Positions 9,839 to 63,850 of a stretch of DNA of 64,000 nucleotides are shown in pieces. The stretch is from the NCBI GenBank assembly GCA_000091205.1, contig AP006492.2, one strand, 5' to 3'. Under the pieces are notes generated by a model that ran no database searches, was not told the DNA's origin, and worked only from the letters and a program-made list of their open reading frames with translations. Each line of letters opens with the position of its first letter. Within the stretch, counting starts at the first letter, position 1. This DNA is from Cyanidioschyzon merolae. Lineage: Eukaryota. Made by a program: the position numbers and the translations under genes.

Positions 9839-12131
9839 CTAGGTACAGTGCAAAAAATCCAGTGTCAGCTGAAAAACAAAGAACGCCCTCAGCGTCGAAC
9901 GTCGCCGGTAGTGTGGAAGAATGGCGGTGAACGCGTCCGAGCCAAATCGTCTCGAACTGACGTGCAGACGCCTCCGCGTCTTTTTGGACCTGCCACCTAC
10001 TACTGCTTCCAACTTCTTCTCATATAATTCAACTTGAAAGCATTGTCCAACTAAATTCCTTCTTGTCCATTCTGGAGGTCTTTTCTCCTGCACTGCACAT
10101 CCCCGTATACTGACGGCGGCATTGAAGTCGCGGTTCACAAACTACATACGTTTCTCGCCATTTTTGGTACTTACCATGAAAGTAGTCCTCGAACGTTGGC
10201 CTTCCTTTCTATTTGCTCTTCCGTCATCGCTCCGTACTTTTTCATATCCGCAGGGCTCGGCTGGCATTTTTCTATCTCGACCCTCTGAAGTGTACACCCC
10301 AACACATGGTGCGTAAACGTTGTTCGGAACTCATCTACAGGTATCGTAACAAAACGCCGTGCGCACTCCTTGTACGTTCTTGTCGTTGGAGCTGGCGCAG
10401 TCCCTTTTTGGGTCTTCCATCGCCCTGCCCCATACGCTACTGAGAGCCTCTGACGTTCATCCTCCTTCAAGGCGCTCAACTGATTGAAAAAGTTGGCAAA
10501 CGCCCGCTGCTTCCCACAATACAAATTCATTCGCAGACGAGCCCACCGAGGCTTTGTATACTCCTCCCACAGTGCACCCCAATGAGCAACGAGAACTTCC
10601 ATGAATTTCCGAAAGGCTTGAAAGTCCGCTCCTCGGCTCGTGATCTCTCTCATAGCTTCCAGGTGATCCCTCAGTCCTGCAGTCCACGTCTCAATTTTTC
10701 TTGCATTCATGATTCCCGATTCTCGATAGTATCTCGCTCTCGAGAACCTCAAAAGACGCATGTCTTTCTGACGTAGCTTGCCGTCAATGCCATTTTCTGC
10801 ACGCTTGGGTACAGCGACGGCTATGATATTTGTGTTTCCGGGGTCCGCGCCAATGACAAAGTCATTATCCTCTACCTCCTGCGTCGCAGGATCCGCGTCC
10901 TTCTTATCTTCATGCTTCACCAAGGACAATATCGAGGACGGGCCAGGACGATCTCTCTTCAACCGCCGATAGAGTACACACATAGCTACTTCATCGGTTT
11001 CGATTATCCCAGTGAACTACGTTTGCTTGTTCATTTTGAGACGTTTGAAATCGAAGATATTCTTCCCGTACGTCTCCCGGTTTTCGCCGGTGAATTCCTC
11101 CCTGCTAACATTGAACTCCGGACTGATCTCCTTCATGATTCTGTAAAGGACAGCGGAGTCGATAGTCACAAAGTGTGACTTGATGTTGCACAACGGAACG
11201 ACGTTGAAGCGCTTCCCCATTAGGACAGCCTTCCATCTCTCCCATTCTTCATTTTTCCTCACTCAGCTTCACCTCTGCCTGGCGTTCGAGCTCTCGGTCC
11301 AGAAATACGAAATACCGCAGAATGAGGCGATAGTATCTTTCCGTATCTTTTTTCAACTCTGATATCTTTGCTGCGGGATTCGCCAGCCCCAAGAATGCAC
11401 GGTGCTCTTGTATAGCCGCGTGGATTACAGAAGCTTCATTCGTGCTCCTGCGTGGCGTCTTCTTGTGGACAAATTCGATCTCATCTTCATACTTTCGATC
11501 GTTGGTGATGCCATTGGTAATCGCCCATACTCCTTTGCGAGACAGGCCCGGGTATAGCGCAAACACGGCGCGTATCATGAAACGCTCCGGGTTCATAGTC
11601 AAATGGTTCCTCAGGTTCGTGAGTTACTCCATTGCCCCATAGTCGTACATACCCCCGTCACCCTTGTATCGAGTAAACTCAAAGGTGTAAATGGGATGTT
11701 TTTCGTGGAGGCCGTGAACCCGCTCATTTTCCCTCCGCGCTTTCTCTGTACCAAGCATCAGGCGGCGAATAAAGGTCATGTCGAAAACCTCATCCGGGAC
11801 CTCGACTGTTTCCATGTGCGCCACGTCTTCGTCTATCTCCCTCGCCAACTGTATCAGTCCTGACGACGCCCTGACAATACTCGTGGAGTACGAGTCGACA
11901 CGTTTTTTGATAGCGTCTCGCAACTTTTCCCTGTAGGGATCCTTGATTTGATTCAGGAGAAAGGCTTTCACCACCATCTCGTCCTACAGTTGTCTCTCTT
12001 GCCGCCTTCGATGTTGGGCCTCCCTCTTCGGTCCTTCTTCTCTTCCTTTTCTTCTGGACTAGGCAATGTTTTTTGTTTTTTCTGGCAGCCGGCGACCATG
12101 GGCCTGCAGGATCGTCGACTTGCTTTTTCAT
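9839..12131 (-). pseudogene. TnpB/Fanzor-like (OMEGA-type) nuclease pseudogene; largest member (copy C) of the composite repeat family; five consecutive minus-strand ORF pieces
   Basis: RuvC-I-like [17 protein letters not shown]. Fanzor-like GAGRWKTQKGTAPAP...VDEFRTT followed by HHVLGC...EKCQ (zinc-ribbon remnant). C-terminal NRDFNAAVSIRGCAV, the RuvC-III D-x-N-A-A-x-x-I motif. The N-terminal piece is basic and NLS-like (KKRKRRR). The reading frame is broken by an in-frame TAA at 11621-11623, an in-frame TAG at 11014-11016, a frameshift near 11249-11262, and a +1 frameshift plus TAG around 10139-10175. AT-richer than the flanking genes. Confidence 0.6.
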
Positions 12132-14919
12132 AGCAAGTCCACGATTTTTTTCGTTTTTTCGAGAAAGAACGCCCTTTGAAGCCTTCTGTTATGTATTGCG
12201 AAAAAACACTTGACAAGACTTGTTCGAAGTTTGAAACACAAATGAACTGAAAACTGTACTTGGATATGAAGTCAACGGAAATACATCTTTTACCTTAGGG
12301 CTACAAGCTAGAGATCAAGATCGCGTTTCCCTTCACCGGCGACATGCGCATAGCGTCAGTTGACTGCCTGATCTCCCAGGTGCGCTCACCGAGCGCGATT
12401 ATTCTTTCAGATGACAAAACGTTGACATTGACCATGGATCCCAGAATTCGGAATGGATAATGGCTTTCGGGAAAGCGTCCATGATGAAGCAACTACATCC
12501 AAGTTCCATTACCCATACTTCATCTCGGATATTCTGGTCGTTTCATACGTTCTGTCGTGTGCCGAGTGCCTACCGTGAGCACCCGCCGTAGCGCGTATAC
12601 CGCTGAAGCAGATGCTGCACGGAGACAGGACGGCGCTGCCGTACCGCTGAGGGCGTCGAACCGAGGCGCTTGTGGTGCATGCTGGTATGCCTGCGGCATG
12701 CTTTTTTCTGCCTCTATGCGTCCAAGGTACCGGCTTGTCCGACACTGCTATCCAGAGGAGCCTTCTCGCAGCTAGCCGTTCGCATATGTAACGTGAACTT
12801 GTTCACGCGTGCACCAGTGTGCTACTGAGACCAGCCAGGTACGCGCAGCTGGGTTCATGACGAACGTGTTTCATTTTCCCACTGAGCTCGGGCAATACGC
12901 AGATCGGCTCATACATGCTCTGGAACGCGCTGCGGAAGCGAACGCCGCCATTCTGTGGCTATCCGGGAGCAACAGCTGATTCGAGTTCATGGACTTTGGT
13001 ACAGCGCTCGGCTCCTTGTCAACGATGCTTGTCGTTGGCACCGAGGCTCGGCCGCTGTGCCTCAGTCGTTTGCAACGCGGCACCGAGAAGCGCGCTGCTG
13101 TACCATGTGTCACGAACGGGATGCGTGCGTTCGCACCAGGCACGACAGTGCACGCAAGCTGTTACGCATCGACTTCGGCGCTGCGGCCTCGGACGACTCG
13201 GCGTGCACGCATACCCACAGATGACGTGTACGTTGTAGCGTGCACCAACGACGACGTCGTTACCCTAGTTGTATATGAGATATACTCACCGGATTCCGAC
13301 TTGTATGTTTCGTACGTTCTTCATCAGGGATGTCAAGAACTGTAGTTTCAATGCCAGAGACACGAATCTGCAAACGTATTCGCGACTTTCCGAAATGTTG
13401 CTCGTGGCACAAGGTTAAACGTGCTCGAGCCGGTGCCTTGAGAGGCAGCGCAACGCCCTCGCATCACAATCTGACGTTTGAAGTGAGGTCGGCGCTCGGT
13501 GTATCTCAGGGCAAAGGCGTTCTTCTTTCGAGGAAAACCCGGCTGCGCTTGTTTGGTCCGCACTGGTGGGGAACGTAAGCTTCCCGACGAGAGCTGAGGC
13601 TCATTTGCTGTCTGCCAACTTTGGTGATGCATCCGAGGAAATCTGGTTCGATGCAGCGGCCTTGTATCAGCATCAAGCGCACGCTAGCGCTGCGGCAGCT
13701 GTTCGCGTTTCACTTGGCTGATTGCCTCAGCCGCCTGTATTCGAATGGATCACGAGCGTTGCTACGGTGATTTCGCTTGTACCGTAAGTCTTGGTCGTAA
13801 ATTGTTATCACGGCGCATGTCTGTGGGTTTGTTAGCGTCTCGATTCACGTAATGACATGGTGGGGATATTCGTTCTTCTTTGCCGTCGCCATTTTGCATG
13901 CCATATCCTGGGGTGGCCTATTCCAGAGCACGTGCCCAGACACAGCGCTTGCTGACGAACGATCGAAGGAATCCAAGCGCTTGTCCAAATCCGCATATGC
14001 AGGTGTGCCCGCAAAAGAGTGTCTCCAACACTCTCTGCGGCCATTTGTACGTTCTGTCGGCCTCAGCTCTGTAGTTACCCGATTGCATCGGAGCTTGATT
14101 GTTCCAGCAACGCTGCTCAATTGCAGTGTGAAACACTTGCATTGCTCTGACGTCGGATGCTGCTGAGATAGCGGGGAAGATCCGTGCCATTCTAGCTGAG
14201 ATAGCGAACGTTATGGTGAACTCCTGTCGAACACTTGTTCGGTATAAGGTGCGTTCCAGTACGACTCGGCGAGCGCTGCGCAGCTTACATCACTTTTCAG
14301 AAAAGAGACGTCGACGAACCCTGCAAGAATGACCGAGGCAGCGCAAAGAAAAAAAGCCAGCTAGCGTCTGGGTGACGAGGTCCAAGGCCTCGCTACCGAT
14401 CCCAACGCAGCTGCCAACTAAGAGATATTGCGAGAACCAGGTGAAAGGTTCAAAACTCGACTGGCAACACTCGTTTCAAATCAGCACACGCCGCAGTTGA
14501 TGTTGCTCTTCAAACGATTGCAAGCGTAACGAATCAGAGGAGCTGGTGGTTTTTACGTTTTCGCGTCGATTCGTCACACCACTTGCCTGTAGACATACGT
14601 AGCAACGGAGGCTGCTCCGTGTGCAATCACAAGAGCCGCGATCAGGGATGGCTATCTTCCAACGACTTGCAAAGCACCGTGACTGCAACACATGCGGCAG
14701 GGTCGACCGATGCCAGCAACAGCAGTTTCGCTTAGGCGGCCGCGGGCATGCAACCTGCGTCAGTTGCACTGCAGCCAGCTGTGCTTCCGCTCTGGCAACA
14801 GCGTAGGTGTGCGTGTGTGCGCTAAAGTTTACCGCACACGTAGCACATCAGGTACTTGAAGGGACTGCTTGGAAACCAAGCGTGGGTAAGAATTGGGACG
14901 GTTGAATTAATTGGTTTTC

Positions 14920-20847: not shown

Positions 20848-20878
20848 GAGGTGGCGTCGACGAACCGTGTCAGCTGAG

Positions 20879-20898: not shown

Positions 20899-21899
20899 CT
20901 GCATGGCAGACGCTCGGACGATGGGTTTCATGGGCGCGTTCAGCTCCAAGCAATGGATTCAGAGGAGGAAGCGCACGCCCTTTGTTGTTGCCTGACTCGT
21001 AACCGAGAATGGGATTCTAAAGGTAACCGCATGTAAGCGTATAGATTCTGCGGACTTGATTGCATCACGTATCTGCCATGTTTACTGGGTCTGTTTGGAG
21101 AACAGCAAAAAGGACAAGGTATTCGAAGCATCTGCGGCAGGTGCCACACCAGATATTTATTTTGAGTGCCCTGTGCCGCTCGGGAAATTCCATCACAGGT
21201 GCCTATGATCGATTGTCGATTACACCATACCGAGTCCAGGTAGACAAGATAATATGTAAACCGTCCAGGAGGTGAATTGCCTGTGTATCTCGCTGGCAAG
21301 TATGTATGGCACTGGCCAGAATGTCGTTCTACATTCATTTACCCAGAACGACGGTGTACGCAAGCATGATATGATGATGGGTAGTAAACGATTTCACGGT
21401 TGAGCAACAGAGCTCCTATCGAAATCGTCTTCTTTCAGGTAAGTACTGACCACGAACGCGCCCCGGGTCTTTAGAACCTTTCAACGCTATTCTATTTCAT
21501 CCACGCTGACTGCAGTCAAATGCCTTTTGGCGCAGTGTATTGCATGAGACCAAGAACGATATCGAATGTAATCGATAGATAGAAGACGAATTGCGTGGAG
21601 GGTAAGTATATTCTACTGAAAAGTGTTACGAGGTTTGCATTGCTCCTTTGGGTCAGTCATACCTCAGTACTCTGATGCTTGAGGAACACTGAACGAAAGA
21701 CGTAGATGCACTCCGCTCGAAAAACCGATGGTCTTAAAGACTGCATGCGGACAATGGTAGAAAACACGACCTGCTTATCACCATAAAGAAAGCACAAGCG
21801 ACGATAATAGACGCCACGAGCGTCCCTGCGTCTCAACAGCTTATTCATGTCGTGGTGATAACACAGGGATACAGTCCCAGAAAAGAGTCCAAGTTCACG

Positions 21900-22760
21900 C
21901 AATGCCATATCCGACCGAAATCGCATCTACGAAAGGGTTCCTAGAACGTCGCTATCCGTCTAAAGCAGAAGAAGCTCGGTATGTTTTTTTGGTCGATGAG
22001 ACTTTCCTCGAACGGAATGGTCGGAGCGTACATGTGCATTCGCTGAGGGCACCGGTTGCATATACGATCGAATTCGAAGAGAACTAAGACGTCATCATCT
22101 TTCCTAGCTGCAATGGATTCATGTCGAGGCCTCAGTTTCGCAAGTTGAGATGGCTCATACAATAGCACCCTCTTCGTCGAATCATAGAAGACTTTTCGCT
22201 CAAGTCTGGCAACGTCCGCCTATTGAACAAGGCAGTATTTCACCATTGCCATTGCGTTTGGGCTTTTGCCAACGCAATCGAGATAGAACTGCCGTTCATT
22301 CCTCCGTACTCTCCTGGCTTCGATCCCACGGGAGAACTGTCTTCTATCATGAAACGTAATGATCAATCCACTGAACGAACCGCGGAAGCGTTCCGCACGC
22401 GGTGACACACTGGAGCACATTTCGTTTTCTTCTGCAATACCTCTACGCTCCGGAAATGTTCTCACCTTTGGGTGTAAACAATAACTTTCATTTTGAAAAA
22501 TAAGGAATGACCTGGGCTGTACACTTTTGAAGCTCAAGACGGAAGGCAGGCTGCGGGGCGCTTCGGCGAAAGAAAAGCACAGAGAGCCGAGAGAGCACCA
22601 AATGGCACGGAGAGCACGTGCTCGACGGCTCCTCGCATCGGAGAGTTCCACCAGATACAACAAACGCAAGGAGTTTATATGCGGAGACTACAACGGGGCC
22701 ATCAGTGTCAGACGATGTGCGGTGCTGGAGACAAAACCCGCGGAACTAAGGTGATCCGAC
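21900..22760 (+). mobile_element. Composite repeat copy A: IS630/Tc1-type DDE transposase remnant plus TnpB-type zinc ribbon/RuvC-III tail (degenerate)
   Basis: D1-like ARYVFLVDETFLERNG (ORF 21902..22087). D2-like LNKAVFHH, degraded from FDNxxxH. E-motif IELPFIPPYSPGFDPTGE, compared with IS630/Tc1 LPPYSPDLNPIE. LGC...LKLKTE zinc-ribbon remnant near 22500. Tail GDYNGAISVRRCAVLETKPAEL (ORF 22527..22754). The reading frame is broken. Confidence 0.6.
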
Positions 22761-23377
22761 TTAATGGGGCACCCTCTAAAGCTCTCGAAGTGTACACGGA
22801 TGAATGGAAGCTGGCGGCAGTCACCCGGTCGGAAAAAGGCTGGGAGGCGTCTGCGCGTGGATAGATATATTTACTATCTATCGACGTCAAACGTTTATCA
22901 TTTTACCGATCGTATAGAGCAGTCGCCTAAAGCAAGTGATACCCGCCGATGCGTCCCGCTACTTACTCTTGATCCCACATTCAGTGAGCACGAGTGCCTC
23001 ATGACCCGAGCAGCTCAAATATGCCTCCGAAACGACTGTAAGGAGAAACGAGCGATACACTGACTAACGAGCACAACCCTGCTTCCGTAACGACTGCATC
23101 GGTATACGAGCACACATAAAGCGTGAAACGGAGAAAATACGCTCTTACGGGATCCAAATACCCAGCCGGCTATGCGCCGCTGAAGAGCAAAGAAGCGCAC
23201 GGCACTCCGGAAAGCGACCTAACGGCGTAAGGTTGTCGTCAACACGCTCGCCTTTGCGAAAGTGGCAAGTCAGAGCGCTCCGACTCTTGGACAGGGTATC
23301 GTGGTCTTCTAGGTATCGACGATGTGGTGTGGCTTGCGTTGACTTTTCGGGTGTCTTCTACTGGAACTCGTATCCCG

Positions 23378-30024: not shown

Positions 30025-30799
30025 CCCCTTTTTGTCTTTCGCTCGCTCTTTCTGTGTATTTGTGTTTGCGGGTAGCAAGTGCAGGAACCGACGACTCAAG
30101 GGCGCGGGATGACCGTCAAAGACCTGCGCTGCGCTCTATGTTGCGTACCCGTTCCAGCGTGTGAGCGTCGTCGTAAAAATCGCATGTCGCTGCAAATATG
30201 TCTGAAACGACTGCGCTGCTCTTCGTTCGTATGGTAGAGGATCGATGCATCCAGTCGGATTTCGCTGGTTACGCCAGCGCTATCCGTATACAGACATGAG
30301 CCAGCTCAGCGCTTCTGAAGATGCTTCTGTGTACCACGTGGTCGAGTTTCGTATGCTCCGGGCGTGCGCTTCTCGGTTTATGGAGCAAACCCCTGGCTCC
30401 GCTGATGATCACGCGTGCGAGGTCGCAGGCGTCACGCCTCTACAGCGACGGTTCATACAAACGGAAGACTGACGTACTTGGAGTATGCTTGGATTTCGGT
30501 CATGTCACACTTGGTTTGGATGAGCGGGCTCGTTATTCAACGTGCATGCATAAGGGGTCAAGGATCCATATATGGTTTTAGAATTGTTCTGGTCGTGTTT
30601 CCGGAGTGGTGGAATTCGACGATTTGCATCAGAATGCGAGACATCACGGTTATCAAAATGGTTTGCGACGTGCTCGAGCCAGGGTTCCTAAAACGATCGA
30701 TATGGTTATGCACTTTATGTATGTGCGGATCTTGATTCTTCGGCTTTTCTCGCGCGTAGCATGCCCAAATGACGCACTTTTGAACGTTTCGATTCTGCT

Positions 30800-31650
30800 T
30801 CGGTTTCAGCGCATCGATGAGGAAAAAATACTCGATGTCGTCCCTTGACAACTTGTTCTCAAGAGCATTCCGAAAGCCCCTGCCCCGCAACATACACCCT
30901 TCAATAATCCGTTTCGTTTAAGAGACCTCTGCCCTGTGTTTGTGTTCATCGGGGACACGGCATTCGCCAGCACCATGATACTTATTGCCGCACATGCACC
31001 CAGAGGCTGCTGTCCTTCTGGTTTCATGAAGATAGGTCGCGGACTTGGGTCATTGCGGAGATCGCTTCCAGCGGAGCGTGCGTCACTGCTTTGCAAGAAG
31101 CGAGCAGACGCGAAGCGAAATTTTCGGACTTGTTCTCGAGCCTGGATTCCCCTGCCGATGCTCGTTTGGTTACGGATGATACCGTGCGCCACAGGTCCTC
31201 GATCGAATGGGACAGCTTACTCACCTGGGAGTCGCCCGAAACAATCCCACCGTTGAAGGGTGCTCCACGAGGCCCGGAACCGGAAAACGGTATCAACGGG
31301 AGGCTTCTGTACCCGTCAGGGGCATGTAGCGAGCGACGAATCAGGCGTAGACGCTCCACAGGGCGACACTCAGAGCAGGACCAGAACGGTGAGGAAATCT
31401 CGCAGGCACACTGGAAAACCTAACCACAGTCAAGTATTGTGGCTGCGAAGGGCGCACCGCACCCGTATGCGAAGAAAATGAACATGCTAAGCGAAACATA
31501 GATCTCGGCTTCTGCATGTGCATCAAACAAGTCGACAACTGCCAGAAGCCACGAAATCGGGACTCTATGCTGCCATGAGAGTCGCTCGAGTGGCGACGAT
31601 GGATCCACATTGGAAATGAGAGTAGGTGTGTTGAAATCCTTAAATATCTG
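30800..31650 (+). mobile_element. Composite repeat copy 1 (DDE remnant plus zinc-ribbon/RuvC-III remnant), degenerate
   Basis: D1-like MFVFIGDTAFASTMI (ORF 30936..31256). D2-like ARLVTDDTVRHRSSIEW (ORF 31091..31423). Downstream C-x-C...CMC...QKPRNRDS (about 31.45-31.60) is homologous at nucleotide level to copy 4. Minus-strand ORFs 30806..31192 and 31024..31359 are antisense shadows. Confidence 0.55.
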
Positions 31651-32646
31651 AGCGGTATTGGACATAATCGTGGAGAAAATCCGACAAGGCTGGCGTTGAT
31701 GATAACGGAAAGAGACTCAAACATATTCGAAAACGTATGTTTTGGTTGTCCGTTTGCAATTGACTCTAACAAGGATGGAAAAGGCTGCAGTGATGAAGGC
31801 TCTACTCGCAGCGGGTACGCGTTCCTGTCTGAAGCCAGTGACACGCAAATGCGTACGTAGAAGCGCGTAGCGCCTTTCGAGGAATCCATCCTCCACCATT
31901 AGAAATGCCTCGATGTGCACTGGAGGTCTGGATAAACCGCGAGATGCCTAGATGTTGCTCCACACAACGCTGTCCGTGATCCGTGGATAAACCTCAGGCG
32001 GACCACTGGCACGAACCTGTGTACCTCTTAGCATCGCTCATTTCGACCTCGAGCTGACACTCAAAAACGTGCTACATAGCCGTTTCGTCTCCTACCGCGT
32101 CCGCAGCATTGATCCAGATGTCAGAGCGGGCGCGCACAACAGGCTCGGCACCTGTAGACTCGTTCGAGCAAACCATCAGCCCGATTTGAAGCCTGGTCCA
32201 GGTTAAGCGGAACTTGAAGGTCTGGAGCAGACTGTAGCGCTGGTCGCCTCTCTATGCGCCAGTGAAAATCGTGTATCCCGGGCATCCCAGAGTCCGGGCA
32301 TCGATCTGATACCATCGAAACGATGCGCCAAGCGGGGCAAGCCATGCGCTCGAGAACTTGCCAGGCCCTGCTTCGTGCGCAGCTGAACGATCCTCAGGCT
32401 TAGGCAGCCTTTTCTACAATGGAGTGGAGCATCGCGCCATACCTGGATCTATATTCGAATCGGATTCGGATAGACTGCGGCGGGCTCCATGTTCATATAG
32501 TCTTTTGCTGCAATAGAATTGAGCATCGCACCATATCTGAATACATATCCGACTTGAATCTGGATACACTACGAGACCAGCACAGTATTCCATCCAGGTT
32601 CCAGACGAGCTGCCGCTGCGCCTCTGTGACTGCAGCGGCATCTGCC

Positions 32647-41650: not shown

Positions 41651-42593
41651 TCAGCACTTTGCCAATAAGCTGTTGAGTGACAGAGACACACCTAGTTGCT
41701 ACTATCGTAGCTTTTGCTTTCTCTAAAGTGATCAATGGATCGTTTTCTACCATTGCCCGCAAACAAGCTTTGAGAATATCGGTTTCTGGCGCGGAGCGCC
41801 TCTACTCGTTTCTTTCAGTCTTCCTCAATCATCTGAGCATTGTACCATGTCTGGCCTTACTGAGGAATGCAGTCCTCGTTGCGCTGTTCAGTAAAGTATA
41901 TATATCCTCCAGGCAATTCGTCATCTATCTACACGGCACATTGCGTATTTTCTTCGATCTGCAGTTACTCTCCGCATCGGGGGTAAACCGAAAATCGAGA
42001 TGAAACGCAATCAGGGCGTGCATCGGCAGTCCATGGAAGTATTCCTGCAGTGCTCATCATAGAGTGCTGTCAGGAACCGTTTCCAGATCGCCTGGACAAC
42101 TTCAAAGCATCCCATAACTTGAAATGGTCATGCAGGTAGACGCTCTTGTGGTATCGTGCTTCCTTTCAAGTACGATCCCAGCGTAAGGGTCCCCAGACAC
42201 GAGCGCGACATGAAACGCGATCAATTCTGCCCCAAGTTTTGAAACCTAAAACCCGTGCATACCGAGTCCATGCCTCGTGTGTTGTGAAACACGAGTCCCT
42301 GAATGCTGAGCGTCGTTTCTGGACCCGCTGGCATGCCGGCTGGCGAACGACGCAACAAGGTACTCGACGGCGTCTTGGAGCCAGTGAAAAGGACACAGCG
42401 ACTTGCACGCGAAACCGGCATCGATTGAGGCCAGATACAGCTATCTTGGGGGTGGCAGGGTGTCGGTCCTCGTCACGCAACCGGCGTCGAGAGTCCAACA
42501 ATAAACGCTTTAGCGGAGACTGAAACTGTGCCCTCGGGGAGTTGTTTGTACCCAATCGGTTGGAACTCGAAAAACCAGGCGGTTGGTTTGATC

Positions 42594-43511: not shown

Positions 43512-44599
43512 TCGATTTCCGCGCTTTGACTGCACCTGTGCCGCGTCTGTCGAAGCAGTGTGGCGTTTGCGAGGCAAAAACACCGGTTGCATAGCTGTAG
43601 ATGGGGCAGGCTGGAATCGAGCGTACTTGCATGCATCGTGATGATGACGTCTTGGCGTGCGCTCTCTGCTGGCACCAGGACTTGCTCGGATGGATTACCG
43701 CTTCGTCTGCGATGTTGGAGAGCGTTGCGGCCGTCTGTAGGATACCGTTGTATGGGATGCAAACTGCTGCACTGCTCAGGTAGCGGTTTTGGCGAACGCG
43801 GTCTGGAAATTGTTCGCGCCAGGTCACCGCTGAACGCGAGATCGTGTGGCGAGCGCGCTTCTCAACGCATGCTGCTTTGTACCGCATCAAACGTTCCTGT
43901 ACACTTTTTAGCACAGAGATATTCTTTCTCTATTTCCGTCTCAGTCTGTGATGTGTTTTCGTGGATATCATGCGGGCGCCTCGTAACCGCAATGGAACGA
44001 TTCGCGACATCTTTTGGAAGCGAGCGCACCGTTGGACTGCAGTTCTGCAGTGGTGACACGTTTCCTAGCATTGGACAGAGCGCTCGGATACGGATAGCAG
44101 GCCACTGGGAATGGTGCTCGCGGACTGATTTTTTGTCTGGATCCAGAACGTGAACCCAAAGGCGTCACATCTGCGTCCGCGTACCTGTTCGTGCTGGCTT
44201 TGATAGTGACGGCATGCAGAACAGCACGAGCACCTCGGTGTCTTCGAATGGTACGAGGATGTATCGAACCGCGCCCAAGACGACGTGAGTGGTATGCGCC
44301 GACGAGAGCAGCATCGAGTGGACGCCGCTCGACATATCGCGTTCGTGTACTCCCCACGAAGGTGCGCGTGTGGTACGCGTTCATCATGGGAACCAGCACC
44401 TCATCGGGAAGGTCTACGAAGGAATCATTTGGAAAACGAGGGTGCTTTCTCATTTGTGTATTACCTGTAATGGCATTTTGCGATGACGCCCGCCCTGCGG
44501 CGACTCGAGATGCTCGTCTGTGCGCGTCTTCTATGAAAGCCCATTTCAGAATAGAATAGGACGGGTCCACTTATGCAACTGGGGTTTGCATACAAAAAA

Positions 44600-45400
44600 T
44601 CTGGATATCTTGCCAGTGTCATGAATTCCAGTAATTACGGGTTTCATTTGCGGCTGCTCCCTTTTCCTCCCTCTTGTATGAGGCTTTAAAAATGCCGGTC
44701 TGTCCTGTCAATCTAGTCTCGTTATTCGTAATTGAAAGATGTTGATGGCAGCGTGCGAAATCCGATTTGGCTGCTTCCGACGGTTGCCAACGCATATTAC
44801 GCACTGGCAAAAGTTTTGATAGACGTTTCGCCTCCCATTTCCATCCCGTTTGGACACAACCTCGGCGCTTTTTTCACAAATGTCGCTATGGACTTGGCTT
44901 AGACCTTTTCAAATGCCTATAATATCTTCTGGTTCGAGCACCGCGTTGCAGTGTTTGAATGCTTGCTGTACCGTTCGGTGCATGCCCTGAACCTGTGCGG
45001 AATGCTCCAGCCGATGATCTTGTACGTTTCCGTGCCCGGTGCCGTACGCAACGATCGCAACCTTCATCAGGGCGCTCCTACAAGCAAAGTAGTCTTTCAG
45101 ATGCACACAGAAGCACACGCCGCTCCATTCCGTACAGATTTCGGGGAACACGACCTTGTCCATGATGAAACTAGTCCCGGAAAGTTAATGCAGGTTAGAA
45201 ATCATGTCGACAAATTTCTACCCGTCTCGGCTCCGTTCGTACAAAGCGGGGTGTCTCTCTCTCCACGGGAAGCGATTGCTTCAATGACTAAAGACGGAGT
45301 TCAAGACCCTATTCCACGCGTACAGGTGAGACAAGAGCCTCTGAGAGCGCAAAACGTCTGAGATACCGTGCTGCTGTTGAATGCCTCGCCTCCAGTAGCC
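44600..45400 (-). mobile_element. Composite repeat copy 6, degenerate
   Basis: ORF 44909..45163 has MDKVVFPEICTEW, compared with copy 4 LMTDDIAFHKSLIEW. Minus-strand frame near 44.72-44.80 reads FCQCVICVGNRRKQPNRISHAAINIF (C-x-C...AAINI). The alternate frame QPSEAAKSDFARCHQ matches alternate frames of copies 2 and 4. Confidence 0.45.
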
Positions 45401-46191
45401 TCAAAGCTATTAGGATCTGTCTTTCGAACGAGACCCATTATTTGACCCAACAATAGCAGTTTACTTTAAAAAAAAGCTTGGGAAGAGGTCGTCAAAGGTC
45501 GATGACGTGCAACTTTCATCGTCCGTCGATTGGTGCGAATTGCCACGCCTACGACTCACCGTGAAACAGAAATATTGAAAACCTGAAGATTTCGTTATCG
45601 AGTCGTGATATGCCTAGGGAAAGGAGAAAATTGATGGCCATACCTACGACTTGGATAATGATTTCGATTATTTTACGCACACCCTTGCCCAAGATCGTAG
45701 ACGATCATCTTGATCCCGCTGACGTATCGAGTACCAGCGGAAAGCGTCAAAGGAGCTTCCCAGACCATGCTATCGAGGAACCTGAATCCAGGAATGTATC
45801 CGTAAGACCATCTTATCGCATTATTTCAAATTTCAAGGCAGTGCATATGAAAAAAAGCTGGGCAAAAATCGAAAGGCAGCAACAGACCGAGCAGTCCAAA
45901 AGATTCATCGGGATCTCGTAACGATGCGTCGTGATCCGACGAACGCTACCGCACACGTCGACTGCGGGATCGATGCCCCGCAGATCATCGAATGCCTGGA
46001 AAAGAACATGTCTGTACATTTCTGTACCTCAGGCGCTTTGATGAGGGCACGCATCGTACAGCGCACGGCGATGCGTGCTGCACTGGATCGCAGCGACGTC
46101 TGCGTGCCGAGCGGCGTCCATACATACCTGTCCAGCGCTGGGTACTCCACGCCCGTGCCTGTGCGGGACGTCGGCGAGTCGTGATCTGGCT

Positions 46192-49473: not shown

Positions 49474-49879
49474 CAACGAGTTTGTGTGTCAGCAAGTGTG
49501 GCCTTCGCATGCGCAGAATGCCAGCACTGCGAAACGCGTAGACGGTTGGCGGTAGCGCGGCCCTGTCGACGCGTCCATATTGAGCGGCACGGATGGCAAA
49601 CGCGTCTCTGGCGCCCGATACGTTCCTAGGAGGGCGGAAAACCCCCGATCATGCACGACGACTAGGTTACGCAAGAGCTCGAGTTACCTGCTCCATCAGT
49701 ATCAGCATAAAAGGAAATAGTTGCTCTAAATCGGGTGCGGGATCTAAAGTTATGGTTTCGTTTCAAGATCATCAACAATTGCGTTGCGGGCTTGCTCTGC
49801 AACTGCTTCCTTTGCTTCGCGCTCGTATTTGCGGCCTTACGGGTAGCGATCGATCGTTTCGCTCGAGCTTGGTAGTCAG

Positions 49880-50600
49880 CAGCGCAAGGGATTCGATGAC
49901 AGGGTTAAAGTCCCGATTGCTGTGCATCCAGCTGTTGTCGAAGCGTTTCAAGCACAGGCGGTAGTTACAATCGATGCATCGTCTCCTTTTTACATGGTGT
50001 TTGCATAGAGCCTTGATGTGCGCTTCGCAGCGATGACATTAGGCCATAGTCGGACGTTCCATTATGTTCATGAAAGGCATGCCTCCGAGTGAGGCCTTGT
50101 CGCACTCGAGGACTCGCTTCAGTGCCTGGTGCATGCCGTTGCCAGTTATGGAACGCTGCTCTTGATGCCCTCCACCGTTTCCGCGCGTGCTCGCTGCGGT
50201 ACCCTGCGAACACGGGCCTCTTCTGGGTGATTGTCTCCGCATGAGCACTTTGATCGCTGCAAGTACGGGTGCTTGCTGTTTCACTCGATAGCGGATTTAT
50301 GGAACGGAATGTTGTCCATAATGAGACACGTTCTGGAAGTATAATCCAGACTGCGGAACAAGTGCAGAGATTTCGAAGCGTCGACGTCCGCATCATGCAG
50401 AGCTTTGACGCACTCGCCACTAGAAGCGATCGCTGGGAGGACTGGAGCTCGAGCCCAAGACCCTTTTCCGTGCACACAGAGGATACGGAGGCCTCTGAGA
50501 GCGAATCCCGCAAGAGGTATCATGCTGGTATCGAAGTCCCTTAGGTCGATCGCCATTGAAGCGGATTTGCTTCACGGATGGAACAGATTATTTGATGTGA
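49880..50600 (-). mobile_element. Composite repeat copy 3, degenerate
   Basis: D1-like AIDLRDFDTSMIPLAGFALRG and D2 TCLIMDNIPFHKSAIE (ORF 50281..50556). The zinc-ribbon region tgtcatcgctgcgaagcgcacatc aligns to copy 4 tgtcattgctgcgaagcgcgcacc. Tail SNRDFNPVIESLALLTTKLE, compared with copy 2 RNRDLNAALNILRLLKTQLE. Confidence 0.55.
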
Positions 50601-53195
50601 CAAGGTCAGTGAAGTTTCAGCATGAACGTGTGTGAAGCATTCATCGGTGGATGGCGCCTTGTATTGCGTGATAAAGCCAGCGGGGCGTATTCCTGCACCC
50701 ACGAGTTGCCTCGAAACAGAAAGCTTGAAAACCTGAAGTATGCGTGACTTGAGCATGGTGCGTGCAGAACGAAAAGGAAGCGCCAAGGCTAGTACTTGGG
50801 CATTGGATAGCGATATCGGTTATTTCAGCAAACTTTGTTTCAAGGCGAAGAGTATCATCAACATGAGGGTTACGTTCCGAATGCGAGCGGCAAGCGTCGA
50901 CGGAGCCATTCGCAAATGAAGATCGAGAATCCTCAACTGGCGTACGAATCCGTAAGCCTATATTGCAGCGCTTCGAAAGCCGAGGGCGTCCATCGAAAAA
51001 CTTTGGTAAACAATCGCAAGGCAGGAACGGAGCGAGCAGCTCACGAATCCATTTGAATTGGACACGGGCGTGGGGAGCTGCCTTGCAGTGTGCCGCCTTT
51101 GCCTCTTCACGTGTGCCGTCGATGTACCTCAAGATAAATGTCCGCGTCCGGAGGCATCCATCAACATCGAGAACAAACGTTTCTCCGCAGCAAACGACAC
51201 GAAAACGAGGCAATAGGTGGATCTTCTCGTACGCTTTTGTACGACGACGCTGGCGACGCCACATACATATCACCTCGTCCGCGCACATGTCCACGATACA
51301 CCAGGAGGGAAGCGTCAATCGTTTTCTTCTGTGTAGTGGCATCCGGACATGGGACCTTGGCAACAGGCATGCAAAGCTTGGGTAGTGTCAGCATCCAGGC
51401 AGGCGCACCTCGTGTTTGTTCGCTGCTATTCGGGAAGCGACAGGGACGCTTGGGATATGTGCGGCTGTAGAGACGCCGAGACCACAGCTCCTGCGCAGTT
51501 GGCGGATAAGCGACAAGGCGATGCATACGCGCTTACGGAAAGCTGATTTTTTCATGGTACACGATCCAAGAATTACTTTGAATATTCCTGGATGTACGGT
51601 TGATTTAGGCAACTCGAGGAGAGACCCATGATTGCATGCTTGGAGTGAACGATGTATGATCCAAGCATCGAATTGGAATATCCCTGGATGTGTGATTGCG
51701 ATACGCTATGTAGGATGCGGAAAACGTTCCTCTCCTGACGACGCTGCGATCAAGTGCCGAAAGAATAGACTTCCCATCGAAGGGTGTCGGATCGAAGATC
51801 CCCTGCTCATGTGTATGGGTGTCAAGCGTCTGGACGCCGCACACACTCGAAGATTCCATAGACGGGCTTCGAGCTAGCGCTTGCCGGAACGGCGATGTAG
51901 TGCCCATGACTTGGTGAAGTAGTTCCAACCTGGAAGCAGTTGCAATTTCTGTTTGCATAGTTGACGGCATAGAGCCGAAATCACACGAAAATGCTGGGTC
52001 CGCTTTCCGGCCGTCTTGCACAATGCCTAGCTTGGAGACTTTGCCCTGCCATGGATTCCCCTGAGTGCACCAATGTCGTCGTAGTCGTCGTCAGGAAGCG
52101 GCGCCCTTTGATACCCAGAATCGTCCCGCAAGCAGCACGAAGAACTGGGCACCGCGCTCTATATTCGGCAGACGCTGACGTTCGGTATACATTGTTTGAG
52201 GCGGCTTGTCCAGGTGTCGCATCCCGTTTCATGTCGTAGACAATTAGAATGGAGGCTGCGTTGCATGTCATGGACGAATACGCATCAACAGTTTCTTGCA
52301 TACCACCTTGGTTGACGTTCTCGGCACGACATGATACTGGACGTCATCTGGGCCGCTCGATGTTGGTTTAGGGCGCCGGCCAGGGAACCGGTAGCGTCTG
52401 CGAAGGGCCGAACGATGATGGAGGCATGTTGCTGGTCTCCATGCCTGCCTGTATAGCCTTCCGCGTCTGATGACCAACAAGGCTCTTGCAGTCGGACTGT
52501 ATCGCACGCAAGTCGTCCGAGTCGTAAGCGGACAGTGCGGAACACGCCCGAAAAATCTCTGTTGCGACATCTTTTCTCGGAATGCTCCGGGGCTTCAGCA
52601 GAGAGCTGGTACGCATCTTACTGGGTCGCTTTGCAGCAGCCGGTCGCAAGGAACCATATAGGCAGAATAGAGTCACAACTGGTGGCCCTAGTCGATTCGT
52701 CGTCGCTAAATCGTCAAACGAGATTCCCGAAGCATTTACGAATCCTACATCATTTGGAGTCTATAGCGAGGAGCCGCTGTACCACAGCCAAGAGCCAATT
52801 CTCGATAACGATAACGACTGATGCGCGTGATTGCCCTGAAGTAAACGCTGGTCTGTGCAGGGTCGCTATCGCCCGGTGAAGCAACGGAAAACGACACGCT
52901 TTTGCTTGCCCCACGAACTCGGATATCATTCTTTGGTCGGTATGATGCACCCGTCGCAGCTGCATATACCGCGTCCCGTTTTTCGTCGCCAGTTTGAACT
53001 GCACCTGCGCTGCGCACTTTGACTGCTGCGGGTCATGGGTAAGCGTTCGGCTTCGCAACCGCTACGACGCTACGGGGCATCCAGGTACATCCGTTCAGGT
53101 CATCGACGGACGACCGACTGTGCCAGAAAACAATGGCACTCTTGGAATGAACGGAAAATCTGCTGGTGCCGCAGCTCGTACTGCCGGACACGGAC

Positions 53196-59228: not shown

Positions 59229-59298
59229 ATTTAGGTCGCTTTACAAGTCTGCAAGCACCGTCGCCAACAGCACACAAAACAGCAGTTAACAGAAAGAA

Positions 59299-59318
59299 AG
59301 AATGAATGAATGAATGAA
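59299..59318. repeat. (AATG)4-5 microsatellite
   Basis: gaatgaatgaatgaatgaa seen directly. Confidence 0.85.
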
Positions 59319-60299
59319 CGATGCGATGCCAAGCGCGCCTGCGTTGTACTCAGTGTCTAGGGCGCAGCGGATGCGACGCACAGGTCGCTAGCGGCGCGCG
59401 TCTGGGCATCGAGTAGCGAGCCGACGCCCGCTGGGACATGGGAAAGCCGTACTTTCTCCGTTCTATGAGTGCACCAGCGCTCTAGTCGCTATCGCGGACG
59501 ATTAGGACAGGTACTCTACACATGGTAGAACGTGTAAAGCGACCAGAATATTCGAGGAGACGTATGGGTGATGGGATTTGGAAGACGGGCGTAGATCGAT
59601 GGATGCTTTACCACGCGCTCATATCGAGCGCGCAGTCGGGTAAAGCTGGCCGATATAACCATTCTTTCAAATAAAAACTCTGGAACTCCAGCGCGACAGC
59701 GGGCGCCGCAAGCACCGATACTGCGCTTACGACATAAGAGTTGCCGTGGCGCGGGAACTCAAGCATCTTTCCGCCTAGGTTTGTATTCGGGGTATTCACT
59801 AGTTCGTTAGAGAGTAGTGGACCACAACTGGCGCTCGTCTAGTGGAGTCGTGTCAAATGAGAATGGAATTCTGAACTGCTTGCTCTGTTCCTGCCTTTCA
59901 GTTTTTTAGAGCTTCTTTCGGACGTACAAATTTGACCTTACAAGTGCATCAAAAAGAACTTACTGGTTCATGTTTAAGTCTAGAATGTTCGGTGGTGTTT
60001 CCGCGGGGTGGTGCATTCGACGCTTTGCCGCTGGCATCCGTGACTTTATGGTCATCAAGATGATTCACAACGCCATCGAACAACATTTCGTAAACTAACT
60101 GACTGCGTTATCCAATGCAAACAAGCAAGTCGCCACGCTTCGCCTCTCCTTACGTGTAGCATGCTCGAATCACAGATTCTCCAAGTTTTCGATTATTCTG
60201 TTCCCAAGTCGCTCGTTGGCGCGGCGATGCGCGCCGCTGTATAGACGATGAAATAGTCTCAAAGGTGTCACTGGCAGACTTATTCACAAGACACGTGGC

Positions 60300-61170
60300 A
60301 AAGGTTCATTTTACCGCCAATGTTCAATATTCGATGCGGTTCGAGGAAGAAATTCTCTAATCTACTTAGTAGTCGACGAAACGGTATCCCACACCAGCAT
60401 GATAGCTCTGACAGGATATGCTCCAGGAGACTCCTTGTTTCTTCTATTTGCATGCGAGAGGGCGTTGAAAGCGGACTTTCGTCATCGCAGCGATCGCTTC
60501 TAGTGGAGCGTGGGTCACCGCTTTCCACAAACGGGGCGTAGACGCATCGGGTGCGCTCGAATGCCTCGCCGACCTGAATTGCCCTTCCGATACGTTTTCC
60601 AGCAACGAAAACATCGCGTACCCCGAAGCCTCTATCGAGTAGAACAGCGCGCACTTAGAGTTGCACCAAACAGAATACTCTCCGGGGTATCGCTCAGACC
60701 AAGACCGCCATCGTGGCGTATGGTGGTTGACGCGGAAACCGGGGCAGCAAGGGTATCCCCCTGGACAAGTAAAAGGCATGTATCGAGCGATGGGGCAAGC
60801 GTTCACGACCCACAGGACGACGCTCGGAGTAGGAGGCGGAAGAGGTTCGCTTGAAATATGGTAAAACCGGAGCACGGCCAGGCGTCACCGCTGTGAAGGG
60901 CACGCCAACGCTGTATACGTACAAGATGAATCTGGCAGGTGAAGCATCGATCGCAACTATTTTCTCTGCATGAAACGCGTGGACAACATCCGAAACCCGC
61001 GAAACCGAGACTTGAACGCTGCCCTCAATATCCTTCGACTGCTGAAAACGCAGCTGGAGGCTGGGAAAGGCCATCATACGAAAAGCCGGAGATAAGAAAG
61101 GACAAACCTGGAAACGCGCAGAGGGAGCTCACAGAAGCCGGCTTTGACGACAATTGGAAGTGACTCAAAC
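60300..61170 (+). mobile_element. Composite repeat copy 2, degenerate; carries the most canonical RuvC-III motif
   Basis: Plus-strand frame at about 60.99-61.08 reads FLCMKRVDNIRNPRNRDLNAALNILRLLKTQLEAGK, compared with the TnpB/Fanzor terminal motif rDxNAAxNIlr. The conserved internal core gcgatcgcttctagtggagcgtgggtcac sits near 60.49. Minus-strand ORF 60444..60875 is an antisense shadow. Confidence 0.5.
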
Positions 61171-61972
61171 ATTAGTATGGACGCCAGACTAAGGGGACCC
61201 GTTCCACTTTATTCTGACATGGGAGTCGCGCGAGCATACGCCGACCTATGGATGTGAGCGCCGAGTCACTGGCGGTCGTCCGTTCAGCAGACAGCGGCAT
61301 ATAGACAAGCTGCGCACGAGCGTTTTTCGCTCAGCGACAACGCGTCGCGCCGGCGCGCAAACAACAAAGACGCAAACGCTTCGGTCCTGCTCTGGGGTAC
61401 GCAACACTTCTTAGAGTTCGAGTTGAAATGTCTGCCCTTATGCAAGGCTTTACCGGAATGAGCGGCACGAATGACCACACTCAGCGGACAGAGGTCGAGG
61501 TGAAACCTCGAACGACGTACGTTACAGTGCAGCAGTTTCAGACGCAGCTCAGTCGTGACTGGATCGCGGCAGTCACTCTGGACCCTTCTTTTCTTACCTA
61601 CCAAAGTCTATCAAAGGGAGAAAAGAGCATTTATCGAGAGCGATGCGTTCTTGTAGAGCGCTTCGCGGAGCTCTCGCGACAACAAGACCAGTCCGACACC
61701 CCATAACCGGGTATGCGGAGCGTCGTTCGGAGCCATGGTGACAGACGCGGTAGGCACGACGTCCGTATCCCGGCACAAGAGCGTGCAGCGTAGACCTGAG
61801 CATCGCATCCGGGACCACACTGGCGTTGCTACGAAGGACGCTAGAGTCGCCGATCGTGTGATGAGGAGCACGCGAGCCACTCCATTACACTACTGACGGA
61901 ACCAACGCCCTGCAGCACTTTTGCGTCCACCAGGCGCTGCTCTACGGCACGCTACGCCACCGTATTTACGGT

Positions 61973-62305: not shown

Positions 62306-62839
62306 CACGCTCGCAACCTCGCAGACCCTCGAACCAGACGATGTTCACGCCCAAACGAATGCACAAAGCGTTCGTATCGATCGGCTCTGGATCCTTGCAC
62401 GCCCCGTTCAGGAGCGCCCGCGCCCGGGCGGCGGCAGCGACGGCGCGTTCATGAAGCCGCTCACCGTCGGATGCGCAGCGGCGGCGGCGCTTGCGCTGCG
62501 CCCCTGTCTGCCAGCATCCACAGCGGTATGGAATGGGGTACGGAACGACTGGATCCGTTCCTGCGCTTCGGGTTTCTTTTCGAGAGTTTTTGCAGTTGTG
62601 CAGTCTCGAGTTTCGACGTGTAGCGAGAGGGGCTTGGGGATTCACCTGAAGTCTTAGGAAACTCGGTCGACGTTTTGGAGTGGCTTGTTTAACGCTTTGC
62701 CGCTGGTGTTCCTTGCGTCACCGTAAACGAGATAATTCGCAAGAGTCCGTAAACAATGAATTGATAGTATTATGCATTGTTTAGGCATATACCACCATTC
62801 TCTTCAAATGATGCATAGCTTGCCTGCATCACGCAATCT

Positions 62840-63850
62840 TCAGGCTCTGGATCTTCCTCTTTGTAGGCATCTGGTGCGCCTAGCGACATTCGCCGATGGA
62901 TCATCGACGACAAATGGACGACGACGTTCCTTGAGAAGTGCTGTATGAGCTCGCGCCGAACGTTTCTTGAAGTTCTCATTCCAAATTAGCGAATCGGTTC
63001 GAAAGTCAAATCCTGATCTCTTTGTGGCCATGAACGAAACGGCATTCGACAGCAGCACGATACCTCTCGCATGAGGCATGCAGCCCCGAGCTTCCGCCTC
63101 TACTGTTTGCAAGAGAAAGAGTTTTGAAGTTGGAATCCAGCCATCGAATCGTTGGCTTCCAGGACAGCGTGCGTCACTGCTTTGCACGAAGCGAGCGTAG
63201 AAGCATCGACATTGTTCGAAGTTATCTCCAGTAGAGAGTGTGCCCCCGGTACTTGTTTGATGACGGACGACATTGCGTTTCATAAATCGCTTATCGAATG
63301 GAAATGCACGCTATTTCTCGTACAGCAAATAGCTTCATCACGTAGTGAATCGCCTAGAAACAGCCCGTGATTATCGGGTACGGGACCGGGCGCGGAAACG
63401 GAGGCGGGCATGAAGCAGAGCGCTCTATACCAGTTGAGTACATGAAACGATCGACAAAACAAGCGTTCACACGCTATAGGGTACACATTTTACGAAGAGG
63501 AAAAGGAGCAGGTGTGCTGCACATATGGAAACAACTCATCATAGCCATATGTCATTGCTGCGAAGCGCGCACCGAAGCTGTATACGAAAAACATGAACAA
63601 GGTAAGCGAAGCCCGGATCTCAACTGCTGGATGTGCATGAAAAGCATCGACAACAGCCTGAAGCAGCAAAGTCGGAACTCGAACGCTGCCATCAAATTCC
63701 GTCTACTGCCGACATCGGAGCTAGTGGTACCGGTGTATTTCAAGCGAAATATAAGGGAGAGGAAAAGGGAGCATTCGCAGATAACGCACGCAACGGCCGG
63801 TGCCGGGGACACTGCGAAGCGGCTTAAACTTTAGTGCGCATGTGAGGGTT
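62840..63850 (+). mobile_element. Composite repeat copy 4, degenerate; shares more than 600 bp of nucleotide-level homology with copy 1
   Basis: D1-like FVAMNETAFDSS (about 63.03). D2 GTCLMTDDIAFHKSLIEW (ORF 63152..63370). Zinc ribbon plus tail AICHCCEARTEAVYEKHEQGKRSPDLNCWMCMKSIDNSLKQQSRNSNAAIKFRLLPTSEL (ORF 63367..63834). Confidence 0.55.

Follow-up and report, generated by a model that had tools for sequence, protein, structure and literature searches.

Intergenic repeats of Cyanidioschyzon merolae as probable internal-deletion derivatives of two-gene Tc1/IS630-Fanzor1 transposons

Eight of the nine repeat copies found in the analyzed window, a 64,000-nt stretch of the Cyanidioschyzon merolae contig AP006492.2, are very likely non-autonomous, internally deleted derivatives of Tc1/IS630-type (DD34E) transposons of the cut-and-paste kind; copy C, the ninth, is a different element. 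Of the two explanations proposed in the first-pass annotation, the second one, in which a Tc1/mariner transposon carrying a Fanzor gene gave rise to proliferated deletion derivatives, is supported by the layout of two intact relatives (L076 and L077) and by the lineage-specific position of the junctions, both described below.

The repeats are real: all nine intervals contain transposon-derived sequence, and self-BLAST pairs copies A and B (68.6% identity over 1.3 kb) and connects copies 1, 2, 3, 4 and 6 (63-77%). Each of the nine is disrupted by stops or frameshifts, as had been noticed originally. The intervals given initially are too narrow, and the single nine-copy family initially suggested is replaced by four lineages that cannot be aligned with each other at the DNA level, that is, group I (A, B), group II (1, 2, 3, 4, 6), copy 5 and copy C.

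Group I elements are about 1.43 kb long. In copy A (21474..22911, plus strand) an almost whole Tc1/IS630 transposase remnant (~21595-22447) is joined to Fanzor codons from ~640 to the end (22497-22817), and in copy B (40587..42010, minus strand) the transposase remnant at 41906-41162 and the Fanzor tail at 40986-40693 are joined in the same way. The shared junction had been noted before, but it does not directly follow the E motif, being located ~45-55 codons further, at the natural end of the transposase. Copy 5, the only one of its lineage (minus strand, from ~38271 to at least 39665, with the 5' boundary undefined), consists of a transposase remnant and, after it, the RuvC half of a divergent Fanzor. 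Copies B and 5 are arranged head to tail, such elements accumulating side by side.

Group II is represented in the window by five copies of ~1.35 kb each, with the boundaries derived from a 22-copy alignment and column mapping: copy 1 (30440..31779, plus strand), a non-autonomous element, copy 6 (44536..45929, minus), copy 3 (49692..51073, minus), copy 2 (59842..61227, plus), which retains NRDLNAALNILR, and copy 4 (62512..63892, plus). Taken together with 0.63 Mb of related contigs, the window provides 22 dispersed copies of group II and 8 of group I, and within each of these repeated families a single fixed junction and a uniform length are observed over many dispersed copies. Scans of the window for tRNAs and Rfam families yielded no match.

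Single reading-frame pieces gave almost nothing in Pfam (one sub-threshold DDE_3 match for copies C and A, and one weak match for the stop-masked frames of individual group II copies), and hence consensus sequences were required. The group I consensus matches DDE_3 (PF13358, cut-off 28.6 bits) with 53 bits at profile positions 4-136 of 146. The group II consensus scores 39.4 bits, covering profile positions 3-102 only and ending before the catalytic E; helix-turn-helix profiles remain sub-threshold on it (HTH_Tnp_Tc3_2, 18.5 bits; HTH_33, 16.1 bits; HTH_32, 15.5 bits). Among individual copies, DDE_3 is detected in copy 5 (50.8 bits), copy A (E 5.5e-6) and copy B (E 1.7e-4). The distance from the second D to E, counted directly, is 34 residues in copy 5, in the group I consensus and in the intact P0056, which is Tc1-like; the motifs of copy 5 are at 39512-39483 (D1), 39279-39247 (D2) and 39180-39160 (E). 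A protein search with the transposase remnant of copy 5 as a query retrieved only the query itself. The recurrence of IS630/Tc1 catalytic motifs, which the first-pass annotation had described across the copies, is seen with Pfam in copies 5, A and B and in both consensuses, but not in copy C, where there is no DDE_3 part.

Like the first half, the second had been recognized correctly, as the zinc ribbon and RuvC-III motif of a TnpB/Fanzor protein. With PF07282 (TNB, or OrfB_Zn_ribbon, the zinc ribbon of TnpB/Cas12f; cut-off 26.3 bits) the consensus of the group II tails reaches 33.4 bits and the C-terminus of P0001, an intact CMe-1A-type Fanzor1, only 14.9 bits, and the Fanzor family HMM detects the tails of A, B and copy 5. 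The zinc ribbon and RuvC-III are all that is retained in the tails of groups I and II, with RuvC-I absent. The tail of copy 5 has all three RuvC motifs in a decayed form, from RuvC-I (FAIFADPG) at 38989 to RuvC-III at 38274 (tblastn with residues 479-733 of P0001, and HMM), and this Fanzor half falls outside the interval initially assigned to the copy.

The group II consensus is bounded by an inverted repeat of ~29 nt with 26 of 29 positions matching (5' ACACCCGTATCAGATTAAAATGGAAC, 3' GTTCCATTTTATTCTGACATGGGTGT), which encloses the transposase part and the Fanzor tail together, while no convincing terminal inverted repeats are seen in the group I consensus or around copy 5. In several group II copies TA stands next to the terminal CAC/GTG, and a similar reading is possible in L076, most ends being too decayed to show it.

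The intact relatives come from other metagenomes. L076 has a 34-nt terminal inverted repeat (59-92 and 3101-3134), a gene for a 306-aa DDE_3 transposase (81-1001) and, after a 32-bp spacer, a gene for a 657-aa Fanzor1 (1033-3006; hhalign probability 100, E 1e-155); in L077 the gene order is identical and the spacer is 47 bp. In both elements the two genes are separate, with a stop codon and the spacer between them. As the transposase is only 26-35% identical and the Fanzor parts 21-38%, L076 and L077 represent the architecture of the wider lineage but not the direct parents, and a full-length parent was not found in the examined sequence of this genome or in 71 related loci. The first-pass annotation had stated beforehand that an intact element with transposase and full-length Fanzor as two separate genes, on which the copies map as internal deletions, would refute a fusion, and L076 and L077, although not from this genome, have this layout. 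Being compact and complete, the 3.1-kb Tc1-Fanzor1 element L076 is usable as a reference architecture.

When mapped on L076, group I consists of transposase residues 105-295 and Fanzor residues 561-647, group II of residues 33-257 and 530-628, and copy 5 of residues 110-288 and 408-625, respectively, a 5' portion of the first gene and a 3' portion of the second being retained every time. Thus, the junction is specific for each lineage, with entry into the L076 Fanzor protein at ~408, 530 or 561 and exit from the transposase at 257 or ~290. The sizes agree as well, since 3.08 kb minus ~1.7 kb is approximately the observed 1.35-1.43 kb. As all three composite lineages map to L076 as simple internal deletions, no new fusion protein is needed. 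The left breakpoint of both group I and copy 5 is just past the transposase end, a mild coincidence under random deletion.

According to this explanation, the parent form would have carried two tandem genes on one strand, the first encoding a transposase of ~300 aa and the second, 30-50 bp downstream, a full-length Fanzor1 (an RNA-guided nuclease) of ~650 aa, both enclosed by inverted terminal repeats of ~30 nt. Three parent lineages would each have lost ~1.3-1.8 kb of the middle, possibly by interrupted gap repair after excision, leaving a 5' end that holds the transposase gene, in part or entire, and a 3' end that holds the final 100-250 Fanzor codons. The shortened units of group I and group II, likely mobilized by a transposase supplied in trans and with TA as the probable target-site duplication, would then have multiplied into the intergenic spaces of the compact genome and decayed neutrally.

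The guide (omega) RNA of TnpB/Fanzor systems is specified by the 3' terminus of the nuclease gene together with the transposon end next to it. A further idea, which we consider unlikely, is that the Fanzor 3' end has been kept not by chance, the short elements being "guide-only" hitch-hikers that use a transposase in trans and are re-homed by a Fanzor in trans; if true, they would be a eukaryotic equivalent of the non-autonomous IS200/605 derivatives that bear guides.

Copy C (9880..12669, minus strand; ends set against 70 related loci) is a complete but inactivated Fanzor1 element of the CMe-1A type. Its Fanzor1 frame (~12061-9953) is near full-length, has three stops or frameshifts and matches the Fanzor family HMM over positions 31-745. 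Its D1-like motif, FVIGADPG, is RuvC-I of Fanzor; the RuvC motifs of this copy are DPG, VDEFRTT and NRDFNAA, and in the 46-sequence alignment of its full-length Fanzor family D484 and E656 of the RuvC D-E-D triad do not vary, and D725 hardly does. The protein shares 80% identity with the published C. merolae CMe-1 over 577 aa. The 5' terminal module, segment X (12371..12669, minus strand), corresponds to the beginning of the CMe-1A / TE-N2_CMe sequence as published (nhmmer E 1.3e-90), with 87% identity to the CMe-1A consensus start over the first ~257 nt, and a solo segment X similar to TE-N2_CMe (59417..59678, plus strand; nhmmer E 3e-45) is found just upstream of copy 2, outside the group II unit. 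CMe-1A copies are ~80% identical among themselves, and some remain intact (Bao & Jurka 2013, PMC3627910). Copy C is a copy of this already published, Fanzor1-only element, from which it differs in that its 5' module has the opposite orientation to that of the published consensus and in that a short inverted repeat is formed by the start of the 5' module and the 3' end of the element, while no terminal inverted repeats have been reported for CMe-1A (Bao & Jurka 2013, PMC3627910).

The full-length family of copy C can be linked to characterized structures. Neither phmmer nor a 6-sequence profile produced a match among PDB sequences, while the 46-sequence profile matches PpFz, SpuFz and GtFz with E from 1e-21 to 6e-9. 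Moreover, the top seven Foldseek matches of the AlphaFold model of this family (pLDDT 80) are Fanzor1 structures (E 2e-15, TM 0.58/0.70). Hence both the profile and the predicted fold resemble SpuFz (8GKH), PpFz (9CF0) and GtFz (9CER), though the sequence identity is only 12-14% and the window copy is a pseudogene. The 3' untranslated stems of CMe-1A-type elements, examined for a guide-RNA-like structure, are conserved but hardly covary, the covariation term being only -0.22. No Fanzor was found in prokaryote genome contigs, as expected for a eukaryotic source.

Among other explanations, one that is unlikely in our opinion is that the composites were produced by template switching or recombination between a transposase-only Tc1 element and a Fanzor-only element with common ends, rather than by internal deletion of a two-gene parent. 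Consistent with it, chimeric Fanzor elements are reported to be common (Bao & Jurka, PMC3627910), and the group I tail has its nearest match (~50% aa identity) in the CMe-1A-type Fanzor, whose backbone in this genome is a different one, transposase-less and with ends unlike those of group I. However, simple deletion suffices, as there are intact two-gene elements in which order, strand and short spacer are as required, and no transposase-only element of these lineages is present among the related loci. With either origin, deletion or recombination, the outcome is the same, a non-coding, non-autonomous element.

The headline of the first-pass annotation, a native chimeric protein with a Tc1/IS630 transposase and a TnpB/Fanzor zinc ribbon and RuvC-III tail in one polypeptide, the copies being decayed genes, is very improbable, despite the fact that the two halves are co-oriented and follow in the same order in three lineages. 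Besides the different junction in each lineage and the two separate genes of the intact relatives, it is contradicted by incomplete catalytic sets, as DDE_3 ends before the E in group II and RuvC-I is missing in both groups. The halves of group II are out of frame: the spacing between the MDN and GYG codons has a mode of 113 nt and equals 2 mod 3 in 12 of the 22 copies. In group I, the 8-copy consensus can be read through the junction without a change of frame, interrupted by a single stop, but this was dropped as support for a fusion, since the junction spacing varies from copy to copy (197-214 nt, with 214 the most frequent) and the single frame is not reliable. Mismatch rates do not differ by codon position in either half of either family (p 0.34-0.73), while in the full-length Fanzor family, used as a positive control, they are 0.149, 0.127 and 0.215 by codon position (p 4e-278), the CMe-1A Fanzor1 family being still under purifying selection. 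The composite copies have thus decayed neutrally, with no coding constraint. Finally, none of the 37 matches among 5.8 billion proteins has both domains, none being longer than 317 aa and none containing PF07282.

Nested insertion of a plain Tc1 element into a Fanzor gene, with the tail being flanking Fanzor sequence outside the mobile unit, has little chance of being correct: the pile-up of copies B and 5 would agree with it, but the group II inverted repeats take in both parts, the whole unit including the tail occurs with identical junctions at more than 20 unrelated loci (which refutes nesting for groups I and II, though not for copy 5), and no Fanzor N-terminal sequence is seen among HMM matches upstream of any composite copy.

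With internal deletion of two-gene transposons as the preferred explanation, the apparent new domain fusion is removed, DDE_3 beside a TnpB tail likely being what such a deletion leaves over. Tc1/IS630-Fanzor1 transposons of at least three lineages would have formerly been present in Cyanidioschyzon, with the abundant 1.35-1.43 kb intergenic elements as their relics. A plant MITE survey (PMC3964958) reports MITEs in all species examined except C. merolae.

The association of Fanzor1 with Mariner/Tc1 has already been published. Fanzor1 is found in autonomous Mariner/Tc1 elements encoding a transposase (PMC3627910; PMC10530073), such as PGv-1, PUl-1 and PUl-2 (Bao & Jurka 2013, PMC3627910) and Fanzor1c-Mariner/Tc1 (Jiang et al. 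2023, PMC10530073), and a gene-loss derivative, PUl-4, is also known (Bao & Jurka 2013, PMC3627910). In common are a gene for a DDE transposase and a separate one for Fanzor1 between short inverted repeats, and the known elements have TA target sites, which are putative for those described here. Unlike these elements, only shortened, decayed derivatives of three lineages, each keeping a piece of each gene, are observed here, and the host is the red alga Cyanidioschyzon, for which no Mariner/Tc1-Fanzor element is described in the literature examined. The units also resemble MITE-like internal-deletion derivatives of Tc1/mariner elements, being short and uniform, with the ends kept, the middle lost, one junction per family and many dispersed copies without an intact reading frame. 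However, at 1.35-1.43 kb they exceed the typical MITE size, and they span two former genes, which is why they look like a domain fusion.

Self-comparison of the window showed old but real repeats among the nine intervals flagged there (copies A, B, C and 1-6). Copies A (21576-22869) and B (41931-40629) share 68.6% identity along 1.3 kb, copies 1, 2, 3, 4 and 6 are mutually 63-77% identical, and the tail of copy C is matched by the tails of A and B. Instead of the single family proposed in the first-pass annotation, they comprise group II (copies 1, 2, 3, 4 and 6), group I (A and B), the singleton copy 5, and copy C. Matches of single stop-masked copies to DDE_3, the Tc1/IS630 transposase catalytic domain (Pfam PF13358), are weak (A, E 5.5e-6; B, E 1.7e-4; copy 3, E 0.016), except for copy 5 (50.8 bits). 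The family consensus sequences, built after fetching 71 related metagenome loci, score higher: 53 bits for group I (n=8 copies, profile positions 4-136 of 146) and 39.4 bits for group II (n=22 copies, positions 3-102 only), the latter with weak Tc3/IS630-type helix-turn-helix matches upstream of DDE_3. For PF07282, the TnpB/Cas12f zinc-ribbon domain, the tail of group II reaches 33.4 bits (cut-off 26.3). By these scores both previously noticed motif sets, DDE_3 and the TnpB/Fanzor-type tail, are genuine.

The group II copies 1 (30440-31779, plus strand), 2 (59842-61227, plus), 4 (62512-63892, plus), 6 (45929-44536, minus) and 3 (51073-49692, minus) are colinear units of ~1.35 kb, and at least 17 further copies, identical in extent, are present in 0.63 Mb of related contigs. 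The consensus termini from the 22-copy alignment form a ~29-nt inverted repeat (5' end ACACCCGTATCAGATTAAAATGGAAC, 3' end GTTCCATTTTATTCTGACATGGGTGT; 26 of 29 positions pair), and several copies show TA next to the terminal CAC/GTG. Group I, with full extents of 21474-22911 (A, plus) and 42010-40587 (B, minus), is also found in the metagenome loci L013, L033, L040, L016, L059/L061 and L060, each unit being ~1.3-1.4 kb long, with one junction common to all. In copy 5 (minus strand), the motifs of the transposase remnant are D1 (39512), D2 (39279) and E (39180). Behind it comes a divergent Fanzor represented by its RuvC half, which extends from FAIFADPG (38989) to the RuvC-III motif (38274) and lies outside the interval initially assigned to this copy. 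Neither group I nor copy 5 yielded a terminal inverted repeat comparable to that of group II. Copies B and 5 are arranged head to tail on one strand (40587-40300), with a gap of at most a few hundred bases, no clear 5' boundary being seen for copy 5.

The origin of these units is indicated by intact relatives, recognized from the genes adjoining the most similar intact transposases. In locus L076, 32 bp separate a 306-aa transposase gene (81-1001) from a downstream 657-aa reading frame (1033-3006). The latter matches the profile of Fanzor1, an RNA-guided nuclease family (probability 100, E 1e-155), and 34-nt inverted repeats (59-92 and 3101-3134) flank both genes, giving an element of ~3.08 kb. 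Locus L077 has the same gene order with a 47-bp spacer. These short spacers explain why the junction lies just past the transposase C-terminus in group I and copy 5. Downstream of the L076 element (3480-3610), a tandem array of a ~23-nt unit (CCGTCAAAGTACCATCGTTA...), unrelated to these elements, extends to the contig end. Mapped on L076, group I corresponds to transposase residues 105-295 plus Fanzor residues 561-647, group II to 33-257 plus 530-628, and copy 5 to 110-288 plus 408-625. Thus each lineage has its own junction, and each joins a 5' part of the transposase gene to a 3' part of the Fanzor gene; 3.08 kb minus the mapped deletions gives the observed 1.35-1.43 kb. With separate genes in L076 and L077, this supports the earlier suggestion of deletion derivatives of a Tc1/mariner transposon carrying a Fanzor gene. 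Direct parents of the short units were not found in this genome.

The other suggestion, a native DDE_3-TnpB fusion protein, does not agree with these lineage-specific junctions, nor with the reading frames, motifs and substitutions. Between the MDN codon (DDE) and the GYG codon (Fanzor), 10 of the 22 group II copies have 113 nt and 12 have a spacing that is 2 mod 3, so that the halves are out of frame. The 8-copy consensus of group I has one frame across the junction, but the spacing in single copies varies (197-214 nt, 214 commonest), which makes this single frame unreliable. The catalytic sets are incomplete, as group II lacks the DDE glutamate and RuvC-I, and group I lacks RuvC-I and has a decayed VDEFRT motif. 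In groups I and II, mismatches to the consensus are spread evenly over the three codon positions, in the transposase part as well as in the tail (p 0.34-0.73), compared to 0.149/0.127/0.215 in full-length Fanzor copies (p 4e-278). A search of 5.8 billion proteins with a profile that combined the three transposase remnants yielded only free-standing ~300-aa DDE_3 transposases and fragments of these repeats, no match exceeding 317 aa or containing PF07282. What looks like a domain fusion is an artefact left by deletion. For group II a nested insertion is excluded, since the inverted repeat encloses the transposase part and the tail together.

The parents of the deletion derivatives were most likely cut-and-paste Tc1/IS630 (DD34E) transposons in which Fanzor1 was the second gene. 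From them, internal deletion produced short units with both ends kept, probably, on the analogy of other DNA transposons, when repair of the gap left by excision was interrupted. Presumably mobilised in trans, these units filled the intergenic spaces and then decayed. The short units are now 25-35% diverged from their consensus.

Copy C had been listed as a DDE/Fanzor composite, but contains no transposase part at all, being a near full-length Fanzor-like pseudogene (motifs DPG, VDEFRTT, NRDFNAA). It is 62% identical to an intact 752-aa protein (P0001); the same metagenomes contain dozens of other relatives, and the full HMMER scan found 1232. Across the family alignment (n=46), D484 and E656 never vary and D725 hardly does, and the 46-sequence profile matches the solved Fanzor1 proteins PpFz (E 1e-21), SpuFz (E 4e-13) and GtFz (E 6e-9). 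When the AlphaFold model (pLDDT 80, pTM 0.77) was compared by Foldseek, the seven best matches were all Fanzor1 structures (E 2e-15, TM 0.58/0.70). Before RuvC-I, the family linker carries a 75-nt (25-aa) acidic tandem repeat, ..QEVQDNDxVVDAxKHEE.. (L004 8001-10259, P0001 residues ~374-470, and other loci), in 1 to ~5 copies (one in copy C), disordered in the model (pLDDT <50).

The window is ~55% G+C, and its host reading frames are long and uninterrupted, with short spacers. Only ~65 bp (9815-9880) separate the end of copy C from the start codon (9814) of the tryptophan synthase beta chain gene, and copy C therefore lies in the expected promoter of this gene, which has an N-terminal extension and adjoins a cap-binding-protein gene. 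This gene pair points to a compact and probably photosynthetic eukaryote as host. Exact matches were seen in JGI metagenomes only. Between copy C and the host gene that comes next, 13125-13415 (plus) matches the transposase profile very weakly (E 0.032) and could be another decayed remnant or chance. A 69-nt tandem repeat (53961-54382, ~6 copies, 93-97% identical except the last) encodes an in-frame 23-aa repeat in host reading frame 53760-54455 (plus).

The 3' untranslated region of copy C (9866-10150, minus) and matching 3' ends in L005-L060 have conserved stems (CUGGAG...CUCCAG; AGUAGUGGGUGGCC paired with GCCGCCACUACU), which could be part of a putative guide (omega) RNA scaffold. Their covariation is negligible and group I does not retain them, so it seems rather improbable that the kept Fanzor 3' ends once supplied guide RNAs.

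Among known elements, CMe-1A of C. merolae has ~150 copies, which share ~80% identity with a 3.2 kb consensus and of which some are still intact, and its 5' 635 bp are a second repeat, TE-N2_CMe (Bao & Jurka 2013, PMC3627910). Copy C and the published CMe-1 share 80% identity at protein level, and 12410-12666 matches the beginning of the CMe-1A consensus at 87% identity; by this sequence identity, copy C is recognized as a CMe-1A copy, and the host as Cyanidioschyzon or a near relative. Its conserved ~280-nt 5' module (module X; 12371-12669, minus), corresponding to the start of CMe-1A/TE-N2_CMe, also occurs solo at 59417-59678 (plus), weakly at 32075-32303 (plus), and at many other loci, solo or beside Fanzor elements in either orientation. 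Terminal inverted repeats were not reported in the original paper, whereas here the first ~20 nt of module X (CTCGAGCCGACGCC...) form a short inverted repeat with the CMe-1A-type 3' end (...CGTCGTTCGACTTTCGAA). Fanzor1 has been described within Mariner/Tc1 elements, both with transposase and in transposase-less derivatives with TA duplications (Bao & Jurka 2013, PMC3627910); this association was confirmed, and Fanzors were also recorded in rhodophytes (Jiang et al. 2023, PMC10530073). The units described here are new families within this already known kind of Fanzor1-carrying Mariner/Tc1 element.
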